64,000 nucleotides of DNA, from positions 1-64,000 of the IMG/VR virus record IMGVR_UViG_3300028024_000105. One strand, 5' to 3'. Position numbers and translations under genes: made by a program. This stretch comes from a virus. Within the stretch, counting starts at the first letter, position 1. Every line of letters begins with the position of its first letter. This document shows positions 44,715 to 52,998 of the stretch, piece after piece. The notes under the pieces were generated by a model that ran no database searches, had not been told where the DNA came from, and saw only the letters and a program-made list of their open reading frames with translations.

Positions 44715-45035
44715 GCGATTGCAAGCACGAGTACGAGCGCTCGGTCTCGCTGGCGTGGGCCGGTGGGATGATCTGCGTCGTCTACCGATGCATCCACCGC
44801 TGCGGCTGGTGGATTTACGCGCGCTAGAGCGCGGATCGGCGATGCTTCGGCACGTACTCCCAGCCACGAAAGAAGCCGTGGGTGCAGGGTCCACCGAACA
44901 TGGCCTGGAAAATCTCGCACATCACCGCCTGGGCGACGCGCTTGCGGGCCTCGTCGGTGATCAGCTCGTCGGCCAGCCCGCCCTCGAGAATCGGCACGCC
45001 GTGCAGCTTGGTGAGGCCGTGTCGCCTAGGTAGCT

Positions 45036-45947
45036 TCACGCCGGAGTCCTCATTCGCCGAGCAAGGCTGACAAACGCGTACGCTGACTGGAGAGGTACGA
45101 CTCCGTTTCCGGCGCATCGAATCCGGTCCAGCCAATCGGCCATCCCATCATCCACTCCCAGAACAACGGGTTCTGTCCCAACTGGGAATAGAGAGAGGTC
45201 GGAATCGGGTCGAGGGGGGAATAGGGGTCCGTAGTCTCCCACTCCTCTATCGGAGGGCACGGACAGTCCGCCACATGATCCCCCCGATGGAGCGTGCACA
45301 GGAAATCCTCGCACATCTCGCAGCGCGTCCAAGGCGCGAAGCGCTTGCGGAACGCCCACGCGGCCCTGTCGAGCTGATCGAATTGCGGAACCCCCTCGCG
45401 CATGATCGTCGCCGGGGAGCCCTTCCAGTCGCGTGCGGCCGGAGTCGGCCAGAATGAACAGCCTTTCTCTTCGGTGCGGCGCGCCGACTTCGCGCGCGCT
45501 GAAGATTCCCGCTTCAACTCGGTAACCCAGCTCTCGAAGGTCTCGCCAGACGACGTCGAGCCCGAGGTTGACGTGTCCTGGGACGTTCTCGAAGAAGCAC
45601 CGGGGGGGGCGAATCTCCGCGATGATGCGCTTGATGAAGGGCCAGAGATGTCGCTCGTCGTCGGTTCCTTTTCGGTCGCCGATGAGGCTGAACGGCTGGC
45701 AGGGGTAGCCGCCAGAGAGGAGATCCACTCGGTCGCGGTACGGGCGGCCGTCGAAGGTTGAGACATCGTCCCAAACAGGAGCATGATCCAAGACCTGGTC
45801 TGCCATCCGGGCCACGAGAGTGGCTGCAGCGTAGGCTTCCCGCTCAACGTAACCCACGCACCGGTATCGCTCTCCAAGAGCGACTTTGAGTCCGAGTTCG
45901 AGGCCACCAACCCCGGCACATAGAGCCAGCCCATTCAACATCTCCAC
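45036..45947 (-). CDS. C5-cytosine DNA methyltransferase, alpha chain (motifs I-VIII and X)
   Basis: LCAGVGG, GGYPCQPFS, FENVPG, HRRERLF, RIRCAGNGVVP. Confidence 0.92.
   Translation of the reverse strand: MEMLNGLALCAGVGGLELGLKVALGERYRCVGYVEREAYAAATLVARMADQVLDHAPVWDDVSTFDGRPYRDRVDLLSGGYPCQPFSLIGDRKGTDDERHLWPFIKRIIAEIRPPRCFFENVPGHVNLGLDVVWRDLRELGYRVEAGIFSAREVGAPHRRERLFILADSGRTRLEGLPGDDHARGGSAIRSARQGRVGVPQALRALDALRDVRGFPVHAPSGGSCGGLSVPSDRGVGDYGPLFPPRPDSDLSLFPVGTEPVVLGVDDGMADWLDRIRCAGNGVVPLQSAYAFVSLARRMRTPA
45050..45934 (-). CDS. Overlapping alternative-frame MTase beta chain (TRD plus motif IX)
   Basis: WPTPAARDWKG and QNPLFWEWMMGWPIGWT; stop-free across the alpha gene; true start uncertain. 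Confidence 0.75.
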   Translation of the reverse strand: MGWLYVPGLVASNSDSKSLLESDTGAWVTLSGKPTLQPLSWPGWQTRSWIMLLFGTMSQPSTAARTATEWISSLAATPASRSASSATEKEPTTSDISGPSSSASSRRFAPPGASSRTSQDTSTSGSTSSGETFESWVTELKRESSARAKSARRTEEKGCSFWPTPAARDWKGSPATIMREGVPQFDQLDRAAWAFRKRFAPWTRCEMCEDFLCTLHRGDHVADCPCPPIEEWETTDPYSPLDPIPTSLYSQLGQNPLFWEWMMGWPIGWTGFDAPETESYLSSQRTRLSALLGE

Positions 45948-45959
45948 GGCAGCGCCGCT

Positions 45960-46478
45960 CTAGGTCTCGAGGTCGAAGGCGTTGCCGGAGAAGAAGCCCT
46001 GGATCTTGCCGATCAGCGGGCCTTCGTAGGTTCGCAGGTCGACGCCGGACTCCATGAACATCACACGGACTCGCTTCGCCTGCTCGGCCCACTTCGTGTC
46101 GGCGCCGACGTAGCGCTCGTCCCAGCGCTTGTCGACGACCACTTCGTAGATTCCGGCTTGGATGATGGCGCGAGCGCAGTCGGCGCACGGCGTGCCGATG
46201 GTGTACATCGTGCGTCCGCGCGTCTTGATGCCGTTCCGCGCGGCCTGATAGATCGCGTTCCGCTCGGCGTGCTCGTACCAGAGGTACTTCTCCGGCCGCT
46301 CGTTCCGCTCGGGGACGTCGTCGTTGACGTGGACCGGCATGCCGTTGTAGCCGGTCGAGATGATCTCGTGCTCGTAACCGATCAGCACTGCGCCGATGTG
46401 CGTGCTCGGGTCCTTGCTCTTCTGAGCAACGAAGTACGCCAGCGACATCAGGTAGGAGTCCCAGTCGATCTTGTTCAT
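45960..46478 (-). CDS. dCMP deaminase (ComEB family), leaderless
   Basis: SKDPST.IGA, TGYNG, HAERNAI, PCADC. Confidence 0.93.
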   Translation of the reverse strand: MNKIDWDSYLMSLAYFVAQKSKDPSTHIGAVLIGYEHEIISTGYNGMPVHVNDDVPERNERPEKYLWYEHAERNAIYQAARNGIKTRGRTMYTIGTPCADCARAIIQAGIYEVVVDKRWDERYVGADTKWAEQAKRVRVMFMESGVDLRTYEGPLIGKIQGFFSGNAFDLET

Positions 46479-46527
46479 GTTCCGTAGGACGCCTGGTCGC
46501 GGGAATGTCGAATCGGTCCAAGCCGGT

Positions 46528-46790: not shown

Positions 46791-47030
46791 GAGCGAGAAG
46801 CCGACGTAACCCGGGGCTGCACCTGTACGTAGCTGCGCACCGTACAGCAGGGCCTGCCAATACCGGGGTACATCGCTCAAAGACAGCTCGTCGGGCGCGA
46901 ACGCGGGCGAAAACGGCCGTAGCGTGACAGCCGGAGAGACGGCAAAAATTCGCCCTGGTGGTGGCTTTCTGCTGCTTCACCACCTTCGCCGCGTTGGAAG
47001 CCGAGCAGCGTCACGACGCGGACAGGGTTG
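46791..47030 (+). ncRNA. Putative structured ncRNA(s)
   Basis: Predicted TSS G46791 equals the first base of closing stem GAGCGA/TCGCTC(46873-78); further hairpins to about 47030. Confidence 0.55.
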
Positions 47031-47055
47031 GAATCGTGGAAACGGAGTAGTGGTC

Positions 47056-47250
47056 ATGGGCGTCCCATCAACCGATGCCAAACCACCGTGCAGCGAATGC
47101 GGGAAGCCCTCCATTTCGATGTGTCCGTACTGCAAGCTCTACGTCCATCAGGGTTTCGGCCTACACAACGGCAACTGCAGCGGAAAGCACGAGGCCAAGT
47201 GCTCCGGGGCTCGATGGTCCCGCGATTCCGACCAGTCCAAGCAGGTGTGA
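47056..47250 (+). CDS. Small Zn-finger protein
   Basis: CSEC..CPYC..H..C..H..C; GGAG SD. Confidence 0.55.
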   Translation: MGVPSTDAKPPCSECGKPSISMCPYCKLYVHQGFGLHNGNCSGKHEAKCSGARWSRDSDQSKQV

Positions 47251-48173
47251 TCCATCTCCAGCGTCCGGACGACTTTCTGAAGGACTACGACGAGTCCAAG
47301 CACCCGCGCGACGAGCGCGGACGTTGGGCATCGGGCGGCAGCGGAGGGGCATCGAGTCCGGACATCTCGCCTGGCTCGCGCACCCTCCCTTCCGTCATGC
47401 GGGAGGCGAGCGGACACCCCAACAAGGTGGACATCGAGCGCCTGGGCGACGAGACCACGAGCGTCGGCACGGTCTACAAGGCCACCTTCAAGGACGGCAG
47501 CAAGGCCGTCTACAAACCCGAGAAGGGGAACGGCTACACGACCACGGGCTTGGACGAGCAGGACAACGAAGTTCAGGTCAAGCTCCGGCGCGACATGGAC
47601 ACCAGCGTGCCCCAGTACAAGAAGGAGCTGGCCACGATGGAGATTGACCGGGAACTCGGATTCAACCGAGTGCCGCACGTTGAGGTCGTGGATTACGGCC
47701 ACGGGCTCGGGCATGCGCAGGCGTTCATCGAGGGCGAGGTCGCGGCCAATGTCGACTACAACACGGTGTCCAACGACGTGTTGACGGGCGCGAGCATGCA
47801 GCAGGTCGCAGCCCTAGACATGATCACCGGGAACACGGACCGGCACTTCGGAAACTTCATGCTGGGCCGGGACGACGATCAGTGGTACGCCATCGACAAC
47901 GGTCTGACGTTCCCCGACAAGAACGGCCAGTTCAACAGCGTGCCGGTCCGGACGTTGGGCAAGGGCGGTGTCTCGATCCACGAGAGCGTGAAGGCGTCGC
48001 TCGCGAAGTTCACGCCGGAGAAGCTCGACGTCATCATGTCGCGCAACGGTATCGGCAAAGCCGCGCGCGAGCAGGCGAAGGCTCGCCTGAACATATTGAA
48101 GACCAAGAGTACCTGGACGGGCGTGGCGCATGAGATGATCGCCTACAACCCCTCAAATGGAATTGAGTTCTGA
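47247..48173 (+). CDS. HPR-tagged PI3/4K- or HipA-like kinase effector
   Basis: YDESKHPRDERGRW; AVYKP, E, GNTDRHFGNF, AIDNGLTF. Confidence 0.8.
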   Translation: MIHLQRPDDFLKDYDESKHPRDERGRWASGGSGGASSPDISPGSRTLPSVMREASGHPNKVDIERLGDETTSVGTVYKATFKDGSKAVYKPEKGNGYTTTGLDEQDNEVQVKLRRDMDTSVPQYKKELATMEIDRELGFNRVPHVEVVDYGHGLGHAQAFIEGEVAANVDYNTVSNDVLTGASMQQVAALDMITGNTDRHFGNFMLGRDDDQWYAIDNGLTFPDKNGQFNSVPVRTLGKGGVSIHESVKASLAKFTPEKLDVIMSRNGIGKAAREQAKARLNILKTKSTWTGVAHEMIAYNPSNGIEF

Positions 48174-51416: not shown

Positions 51417-51549
51417 CGTCGTGTCCTTTCTGTTCATGTAGGTAAGACGCCGAGGGCTCTCGTTCGTTACCGGGAATGCAGATAATCGCATTCCGTGTAA
51501 CAGTCATGCAGGTTTGGCGTCTCACTCATGTGAACAGAAAGGAGATCGG

Positions 51550-52998
51550 ATGAACTGGTTCGAGGTCGACAAGAAGGGCCTAGCCAATCTGCTGGGACGC
51601 CGGGGCAAGGCGTTCCTCGTGCACGAGCTGGTCCAGAACGCCTGGGACACGAACGCGACGCGCGTCGACGTGAACCTCGTGTCGCTGCCCGGCCGCAAGC
51701 TGGCCCGGCTGACCGTGGAAGACGACGACCCGGAGGGCTTCAAGGACATCTCGCACGCCTTCACGCTCTTCGCGGAGTCCGCCAAGAAAGGCGACGCCGA
51801 GAAGCGTGGGCGCTTCAACCTTGGCGAGAAGCTCGTCCTCGCGCTCTGCAAAGAGGCGAAGATCACGACGACGACCGGAGGGGTCAAGTTCAGCGACAAG
51901 GGGCGCCAAGTGATCGGCGCCACGACCATGTCCGGTTCCATCTTCGAAGCCCTGATCCCGCTGACCGACGCCGAGTTGGGCGAGATGACCAAGTCGGTCG
52001 CGTGTCTGATCCCGCCCGCCGGGATCGCCACGTTCTACAACGGCGACGCGCTCCTGGAGCGCATGCCGCTCCACGAGTTCGAGATCACGCTCCCGACGGA
52101 GATCGCCAACGCCGAGGGCCAGCTCCGGCGGACCGAGCGCAAGACCAAGGTGCAGGTCTTCGATCCGCAGGATGGAGAGCAGGCCAGCATCTACGAGATG
52201 GGCATCCCCATCGTCGAGACCGAGGACAAGTGGCACTACAACGTGCTGCAGAAGGTCCCGCTCAACATGGATCGGGACAACGTGACGCCGCACTACCTCA
52301 AGACGGTGCGCGCGGCCGTGCTGAACGCCATGCACGAGAAGCTCACGCCCGAGGACGCCAGCACCCCGTGGGTGCGCGAGGGCGCGGCCGACGAGAACGC
52401 CACCAAGGAAGCCACCGAGAAGGTGATGGACCTTCGCTTCGGGAAGAAGCGCGTCATCTTCGACCCCTCCGACCTGGAGGGCAACAAGCTCGCCGTGTCC
52501 GAAGGCTACACCGTGATTCCGCCCCGGTCCCTGAACAAGGACGAGTGGGACAACGTCCGCAAGCACGACCTAGCAAAGCCCGCCGGGCAGGTCACGCCGT
52601 CGCCCAAGCCCTACTCGCCCGAGGGCGACCCGCTCAAGATCCTGCCCGAGCTGGAGTGGACCGACCCCATGAAGCGGGTGGCCGAGTACGCGCGCTGGCT
52701 CGCGCAGGAGCTGCTGGGGAACAACCGCCTGCACGTGATCATCGCGCGCGAGGCAACGTGGCCTTACGGCGCGACCTACGGCATGGATCAGTTGACCCTC
52801 AACCTGGGCCGACTGGGGCACGACTGGTTCAAGTCGGTCGGCCAGCACACGGATCGCTTGCTGATCCATGAGTTCGGGCACCACTACGCGGCGGACCACC
52901 TGTCGAAGGAATACTACGATGCCCTGTGCAAGCTCGGCGCGAAGATGACGGCCTTGGCCCTGCAGTACCCGGAGGTCTTCAAGGGTTTCCGGATCTGA
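51550..52998 (+). CDS. GHKL ATPase with C-terminal HExxH metallopeptidase-like domain
   Basis: ELVQNAWD, EDDDPEG, RGRFNLGEK; LLIHEFGH. Confidence 0.8.
   Translation: MNWFEVDKKGLANLLGRRGKAFLVHELVQNAWDTNATRVDVNLVSLPGRKLARLTVEDDDPEGFKDISHAFTLFAESAKKGDAEKRGRFNLGEKLVLALCKEAKITTTTGGVKFSDKGRQVIGATTMSGSIFEALIPLTDAELGEMTKSVACLIPPAGIATFYNGDALLERMPLHEFEITLPTEIANAEGQLRRTERKTKVQVFDPQDGEQASIYEMGIPIVETEDKWHYNVLQKVPLNMDRDNVTPHYLKTVRAAVLNAMHEKLTPEDASTPWVREGAADENATKEATEKVMDLRFGKKRVIFDPSDLEGNKLAVSEGYTVIPPRSLNKDEWDNVRKHDLAKPAGQVTPSPKPYSPEGDPLKILPELEWTDPMKRVAEYARWLAQELLGNNRLHVIIAREATWPYGATYGMDQLTLNLGRLGHDWFKSVGQHTDRLLIHEFGHHYAADHLSKEYYDALCKLGAKMTALALQYPEVFKGFRI

Follow-up and report, generated by a model that had tools for sequence, protein, structure and literature searches.

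Can a single phage gene, read in two frames of the same strand, supply both halves of one DNA (cytosine-5) methyltransferase? The question is raised by a locus on the minus strand (45036-45947) of a stretch of viral DNA 64,000 nucleotides (nt) in length, here called the window, which has a guanine-plus-cytosine (GC) content of 63%, forms part of the 96.8-kb IMG/VR virus record IMGVR_UViG_3300028024_000105 and finds its best match among public runs in a soil metagenome. The two-chain enzyme M.EcoHK31I, made up of an alpha and a beta polypeptide, was reportedly described by Lee, Kam and Shaw in 1995, and to our knowledge the two-frame layout has been proven for a single E. coli enzyme. An earlier interpretation of the window made from its letters alone (hereafter the sequence-only reading) took the gene for a phage example of this alpha/beta type with near-complete overlap of the two chains. 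Our analysis supports this view by the complementary motifs of the two frames, by the recurrence of the layout in more than 100 loci and in a cultured phage, and by a switch of selection between the frames. We consider it likely that the gene encodes two polypeptides which together form one DNA (cytosine-5) methyltransferase, with alpha as the catalytic chain and beta as the provider of the recognition part and of motif IX.

Complementary methyltransferase motifs in two overlapping frames

Frame A, coding for alpha, is an open reading frame (ORF) of 303 amino acids (aa) when counted from the GTG at 45947, and it ends with the TGA at 45036-45038 (45036-45947, minus strand). Its translation contains the catalytic motif set of C5 methyltransferases, namely motifs I (FxGxG-type), IV (PCQ), VI (ENV) and VIII (RxR). 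On the basis of sequence motifs and of the alignment of homologues, motif I (LCAGVGGLELG), involved in the binding of S-adenosylmethionine (AdoMet), was placed at 45891-45923, motif IV with the catalytic cysteine (GGYPCQPFS) at 45687-45713 and motif VI (FFENVPG) at 45576-45596; motif VIII (HRRERLFILA) follows at 45447-45476, near the point where selection leaves frame A for frame B. The sequence-only reading had described this frame as one with motifs I-VIII together with X but without a recognisable target recognition domain and motif IX, and this was confirmed: Pfam family PF00145 covers residues 7-167 only (E 1.5e-32), and the recognition domain and motif IX that are usual on the catalytic chain of PF00145 enzymes were not found in frame A.

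Behind the catalytic motifs, alpha residues 168-242 (45222-45446, minus strand) represent a linker that is not conserved and corresponds to the other-frame reading of the beta recognition part. Residues 243-259 (FPPRP..., 45171-45221) contain the conserved FPPxP..W..P pattern before motif X, in a stretch where frame B is variable, and motif X itself (GNGVVP, 45093-45110), recognised as a sequence motif, includes G280 and N281, both invariant across 44 homologues. The homologues of alpha, annotated as 'DNA cytosine methyltransferase' in, e.g., Agrobacterium, Mesorhizobium and Sinorhizobium, are conserved over the first 167 residues, have a middle of variable length and composition without any conserved column, and continue after it with FPPxP..W..P..DG.A.R.DRLR..GNGVVP. 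Eight consecutive G (on the coding strand, eight C) are located in alpha at 45593-45600, between motifs V and VI (codons RPPR).

A second frame on the same strand, reported earlier as open for 294 codons and as containing WPTPAARDWKG, NPLFWEWMMGWPIGWT and a Cys-rich insert, was found exactly as described at 45050-45934 (minus strand; +1 relative to alpha; stop at 45050-45052). This frame B, coding for the putative beta chain of 294 aa, opens with MGWLYVP (45914-45934), which corresponds to the conserved family start motif [MVL](x)W[LI]xxP. Beta residues 8-130 (45545-45913) are the other-frame reading of alpha motifs I-VI and show low values of the predicted local distance difference test (pLDDT) in the structure model; in the matching region of relatives, amino acids change freely and stops are absent. 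The WPTPAARDWKG module (45419-45451), assigned by sequence motif as the WPTPxAxDxKG unit of the putative recognition part, is present in one copy in the window beta and in four copies in some relatives. Further downstream lie a Cys/His mini-domain (W202-Y238, 45221-45331) and the motif IX-like NPLFWEWMMGWPIGWT (45125-45172), the identity of which is suggested by a short collinear match to a single-chain enzyme (E 0.048, see below) and by the family consensus LNPxFxEWLMGxPxGWT. The same bases encode the conserved DG.A..DR.R segment of alpha, including an Arg five residues ahead of the motif X Gly.

A hidden Markov model search of both frames, suggested earlier as a check, assigned frame A to PF00145 and frame B to phrog_1008 ('DNA methyltransferase', PHROGs v4; E 3.8e-22, residues 56-174), with nothing in Pfam for the latter. 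Since frame B matches phrog_1008, frame-B ORFs have sometimes been called by gene callers in phage genomes. The phmmer search with beta yielded 732 matches. Among cultured phage records, tblastn with the C-terminal 139 aa of beta gave no match, and tblastn with P0124 retrieved two Synechococcus phages only. The scan of genome contigs with the C-terminal part of beta revealed no relative, and the leads from the protein atlas, to small viral hypothetical proteins, all stayed below threshold. Short beta-like proteins of 170-180 aa (P0127, P0128 and P0130) were also observed.

Conservation of the layout and selection in related loci

Related loci were fetched through alpha (51 viral and 80 metagenome loci, about 130 together), and in one locus after another tblastn located sequence resembling frame B in the +1 frame of the alpha homologue. 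Of the 114 loci with a complete alpha, 107 have a frame B that is open over the whole gene, beginning at the start of alpha and reaching to about its stop, and this holds also at 45-55% GC; in the 47 loci with a GC content below 56%, the median ORF length amounts to 352 aa for frame B and 359 aa for alpha, as compared with 26 aa for the +2 frame. Synonymous shuffling of alpha in relatives predicted 3-11 stops in the +1 frame, while 0-2 were seen (P <=0.003 in many loci). In the middle of the gene, where beta is the selected chain, frame A in turn contains 0 stops versus 144.8 expected (28 distinct low-GC loci). The cultured Synechococcus phage Yong-M2-251 carries the same two ORFs (825-1964 and 832-1947 of locus L053), and its annotation covers frame A only.

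The direction of selection was assessed in two clusters of relatives, X and Y, at 81-96% nucleotide identity, by classing each substitution according to its effect in both frames; the counts are pairwise and hence not independent, and their direction is unambiguous. Over codons 61-180, which include motifs IV-VIII, substitutions synonymous in A and nonsynonymous in B prevail over those nonsynonymous in A and synonymous in B, both in cluster X (198 vs 50) and in cluster Y (215 vs 103). Over codons 181-300, the middle of the gene, the relation is inverted (60 vs 417 in cluster X and 10 vs 280 in cluster Y). The final ~40 codons show fewer substitutions, of mixed class, as would follow from constraint in both frames; in the window this zone corresponds to 45125-45172. 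To judge from these counts, purifying selection changes over from frame A to frame B and then returns. Among the few listed differences of partial relatives in runs X2, X3 and X6, 14 were synonymous in A versus 10 in the N-terminal half, a weak lean that was not counted as evidence. The closest relatives found for the window alpha share ~50% identity with it over the full length and ~70% over the N-terminal half, and the metagenome scan, with its 80 further loci, contained none near the window's own gene.

Within the window itself, the GC content at alpha codon positions 1/2/3 is 0.72/0.45/0.69 over motifs I-VIII, where the GC-rich position is the alpha third, and 0.80/0.61/0.56 after motif VIII, where it is the alpha first, i.e., the beta third. 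Three features go beyond chance: the motif content of frame B, this switch of the GC-rich codon position and the fact that related loci keep the layout. No RNA run matching the stretch was listed, and one run presumed to be RNA held short, diverged pieces only.

A second clade of alpha (L135-L138, L142, L149 and L150), with TFGSLFAGIGGFDLG as motif I, was also encountered, in which some 75-150 alpha codons precede the opening of the +1 frame, close to where motif IV is read in the other frame. How far beta overlaps alpha at its N-terminal side therefore differs among clades.

Probable start sites of the two chains

The window gene begins with the sequence GTG GAG ATG TTG A-ATG-GGC. The beta ATG (45934) stands immediately after a TGA in its own frame, and 7 nt ahead of it lies GGAG (45942-45945, minus strand), a putative Shine-Dalgarno-like sequence. 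For alpha, ATG 45941 is a more likely start than GTG 45947, because homologues begin with MLNGLAL. The motif [MVL](x)W[LI]xxP was found right after a start codon beside the alpha start in 90 of 97 distinct loci; in 71 of these 90, the alpha GTG is positioned 2 nt past the beta start (RTGTGG), behind a single purine-rich tract. The arrangement in the window belongs to a minority type, the plain form of which occurs in 13 loci.

A prophage copy in E. coli PCP07014 (NZ_CM129871.1; 1864-2644 of locus L152) represents a two-frame gene with starts 4 nt apart (GTGAATG). Both of its frames meet a stop inside a 7-nt interval (2227-2233), and the Prokaryotic Genome Annotation Pipeline (PGAP) lists it as a pseudogene with an internal stop.

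Predicted structures and a single-chain counterpart

Structures of both chains were modelled with AlphaFold2 on family alignments. In the alpha model (predicted template modelling score, pTM, 0.70), residues 1-170 and 271-303 reach pLDDT values of about 85-97, with motif X at 86-95, and residues 171-270 are at 32-60. The Foldseek match of the alpha model to M.HhaI (E 8.5e-13) spans ~173 of 327 columns, which correspond to the large domain only. In the beta model, residues 1-130 have pLDDT values of 40-55, a single helix is formed by residues 133-146, and residues 160-294 are folded, with values of 63-95 that exceed 90 in the Cys/His insert.

A counterpart with all motifs in one frame is provided by the single-chain methyltransferase of locus L140. 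Alpha residues 1-166 align to its residues 58-219 (E 7e-21), the beta mini-domain aligns to residues 322-357 (E 2e-14), and beta motif IX has a collinear counterpart in RLTPLECERLQGFPDGWT, residues 439-469 (E 0.048).

Proposed arrangement and alternative explanations

In the two-polypeptide arrangement, alpha would be the catalytic large domain, composed of motifs I-VIII, a linker of ~75 unselected residues, the FPPxP segment and motif X, the latter completing the AdoMet pocket of alpha. Beta would start 7-13 nt after the alpha start, at ATG 45934 behind GGAG. Its first ~130-150 residues would be a mere other-frame reading of the alpha catalytic motifs, after which the chain would form the recognition part out of the WPTPxAxDxKG module, the Cys/His mini-domain and motif IX. 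The two chains would then assemble like the domains of a monomeric enzyme such as M.HhaI, with beta reading the major groove of a putative target sequence. Both chains would be made, would associate with each other and would both be needed; that both are made and required has indirect support from the stop-free unselected parts and from the conserved starts.

Several observations weigh against this arrangement. In the window gene, the open +1 frame is not significant under synonymous-codon shuffling (P about 0.1-0.28), and, for want of a closer alpha relative, the test of selection draws on different clades within the family. The start of alpha is ambiguous between GTG 45947, ATG 45941 and TTG 45938, and a well-spaced GGAG is available only to the beta ATG and to none of the alpha start candidates. 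The Pfam scan of beta returned no match, its model matched none of the solved structures (Foldseek best E 6.2; VIA best Z 2.2), and the beta profile gave only chance matches among PDB sequences, with no solved methyltransferase. The assignment of beta as the methyltransferase small domain would thus be one made from sequence, by its short motifs and their collinearity; the absent fold match of beta is not evidence for a new fold.

The selected segments could also be joined in a single polypeptide through two programmed frameshifts, with translation passing from frame A by +1 into frame B after motif VIII and back by -1 for motif X. The A-B-A succession would give the canonical order of motifs I-VIII, recognition part, IX and X, as in L140. 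The unselected parts, however, would never be translated in such a scheme and could collect stops, and yet the middle of frame A contains none (0 vs 144.8 expected), and frame B is open across the N-terminal half of alpha in 107 of 114 loci and has its own conserved start motif beside the alpha start. That the unselected parts are stop-free argues therefore against a double frameshift as well as against sequencing errors. Two polypeptides are favoured over the double frameshift because beta motif IX and the alpha segment ahead of motif X share their bases: 45125-45172 encodes both, and one chain cannot hold both. In programmed frameshifting the zero frame would be closed after the shift site, whereas here both frames are open, in low-GC relatives too, and no conserved slippery site or in-frame stop was noticed at the boundaries, for which no systematic scan was made. 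Altogether, we regard a double frameshift as unlikely.

That only alpha is functional, frame B being the untranslated relic of a single-chain gene or a chance ORF in GC-rich DNA, appears very unlikely. Long alternative ORFs are common in the 63% GC window, where overlapping ORFs of at least 300 aa in an alternative frame occur frequently, and openness alone is not significant; the literature on M.EcoHK31I, moreover, puts the predicted recognition domain on alpha. In relatives, however, the middle of the gene is under purifying selection in frame B and not in frame A, frame B stays open at a GC content of 45-55%, and the middle of alpha is unconserved and predicted to be disordered, alpha having neither motif IX nor a recognisable recognition part. 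As for an artefact of sequencing or assembly, two compensating indels would have to split a gene that in reality occupies a single frame, which is what the sequence-only reading had named as fatal to its own proposal. The window derives from a metagenome assembly and includes the eight-G run at 45593-45600, but a separate assembly of what is probably the source sample of the window, the Logan contig of run X1 (depth 14), agrees with it all along 44900-46100, with 0 differences, 0 gaps and no length variant of the G run. More than 100 independent loci, and the genome of a cultured phage too, show the same frame relation, and both frames are open from end to end, unlike the outcome of two indels. 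The chance of such an artefact is negligible.

The Cys/His mini-domain

The mini-domain within the putative beta shows the pattern C-x2-C-x4-C-x2-H-x3/4-H-x3-C-x-C, followed by PPIEEW..DPY. Its ligand pattern is invariant, and the domain is predicted to bind metal. All of the ~130 loci retrieved by means of alpha lack it. A DNA pattern for DC.CPPIEEW recovered 17 viral loci, in seven of which the mini-domain is located in a +1-frame beta over an alpha 36-38% identical to the window alpha. One locus has it inside the single-chain enzyme (L140), one (L143) in a beta-like frame at a contig end, the adjacent frame containing motif X, and one (L145, 11-781) fused to an unrelated N-terminal domain; the other seven (L139, L141, L144, L146, L147, L148 and L151) are free-standing ORFs of 40-129 aa, counted from stop to stop. 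No methyltransferase homologue was found within the fetched stretches of the free-standing loci and of L145, and phmmer revealed many proteins of 50-120 aa that are made up of the mini-domain module.

The mini-domain, which occurs in betas, in a single-chain enzyme and in free-standing short ORFs, is thus a mobile module linked to the recognition regions of methyltransferases, and metal binding, DNA reading or regulation may be proposed as its role. New here is a mini-domain of predicted metal-binding type that is inserted in beta and found also in a single-chain methyltransferase and in free phage mini-ORFs.

Genomic neighbourhood

The methyltransferase gene is the second in a short minus-strand unit, while the surrounding region is mostly plus-strand. 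Its upstream neighbour codes for a deoxycytidine monophosphate (dCMP) deaminase (45960-46478, minus strand; PF00383, E 1.2e-22) with ATG 46478 as the probable start, and the deaminase stop is located 12 nt ahead of the alpha GTG. The longest deaminase ORF extends back to 46541, and within it falls CGTCCTAC (46484-46491, minus strand), a repeated promoter-like motif with 26 copies in the window versus 2.3 expected. The deaminase probably begins at MNKIDWD, because CGTCCTAC sits 5 nt before ATG 46478, inside the longest ORF; its mRNA is perhaps leaderless, and the motif probably marks the start of the minus-strand transcription unit.

On the downstream side, an ORF of 71 aa (44824-45039, minus strand) has a GTG that overlaps the alpha TGA (GTGA). 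This ORF gave no Pfam or family match, its third-position GC is compatible with coding, and its translation may be coupled to that of alpha. There is no apparent restriction enzyme among these neighbours, the dCMP deaminase and the 71-aa ORF, and for this reason the gene looks like an orphan phage methyltransferase. Elsewhere on the plus strand, a protein of 381 aa (47028-48170) has a PI3_PI4_kinase match of 29.5 bits (cut-off 27.1), and a protein of 494 aa (51514-52995) has an HATPase_c_3 match.

Implications

A combined reading, on which we are almost evenly divided and lean slightly towards doubt, is that one ribosome-binding site serves two starts 2-7 nt apart, that the chains carry stop-free ballast, and that a portable mini-domain was captured. 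The start would then be of a fixed design (RTGTGG in most members, ATG..A-ATG-G in the window), at which each ribosome would make either alpha or beta. Each chain would carry 75-150 residues of unselected other-frame sequence, subject to the sole requirement that it contain no stop, and the mini-domain, captured by beta in this clade and encoded by phages also as free proteins of 40-80 aa, could serve methyltransferases as a transferable module for DNA reading or regulation.

Should both chains be made, the gene would provide a case of same-strand dual coding over ~290 codons, conserved in many phages and prophages, with an overlap far longer than is typical of bacterial or phage genes. Annotation pipelines would then record half of the enzyme, as in Yong-M2-251 with frame A only and in the E. 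coli prophage copy listed as a pseudogene, and the recognition part would have been sought on the wrong chain, possibly in M.EcoHK31I too. To predict the specificity of anti-restriction methylation in phages, the beta frame would have to be included. The locus would also offer a natural system for studying two overlapping starts that share one ribosome-binding site and evolution under interleaved constraints.

Comparison with known systems

The catalytic fold and the motifs of alpha resemble those of the monomeric PF00145 enzymes M.HhaI and M.HaeIII; unlike these, the phage enzyme would consist of two chains, and alpha spans only about half of M.HhaI. The family phrog_1008, matched by beta, is a clustering family without a functional study, and the match falls in the other-frame reading of the alpha motifs, not in the recognition part. 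A family-level description of the two-frame layout was not found in the literature searched.

M.AquI (CYCGRG) is likewise a C5 methyltransferase composed of two polypeptides, split in the variable region, with motifs IX and X on the small subunit (PMC3404938). In the phage gene, by contrast, motif X is placed on alpha together with motifs I-VIII, and a single stretch of DNA carries both genes as superimposed frames.

The comparison with M.EcoHK31I was made by published description and not by sequence, as no record of its gene was found in the collections searched; the plasmid and E. coli collections gave other methyltransferases, and a plasmid match with two annotated features turned out to be an ordinary M.NgoMIV-type system. 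M.EcoHK31I of E. coli HK31 (YGGCCR) is an alpha/beta C5 methyltransferase, in which motifs I-VIII, motif X and the predicted recognition domain belong to alpha, motif IX belongs to beta, the whole of beta is encoded in a different frame within the alpha gene, and activity needs both chains (PMC2836561, PMC3404938); what the sequence-only reading had stated of this enzyme agrees with these papers. Internal Met codons of its beta are usable as starts (PMC2836561, PMC3404938), and methylation persists when the first 42-67 residues of beta are removed, being reduced or dependent on zinc-finger tethering (PMC2836561), a result that fits an N-terminal part of beta not essential for catalysis. The phage gene shares with M.EcoHK31I an alpha with motifs I-VIII as well as X, plus a putative beta with motif IX in an alternative frame inside alpha. 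It differs in that, by selection and conservation, the recognition part appears to be on beta, the 'variable region' of alpha being an unselected linker, and in that beta overlaps almost all of the alpha gene and begins beside the alpha start.

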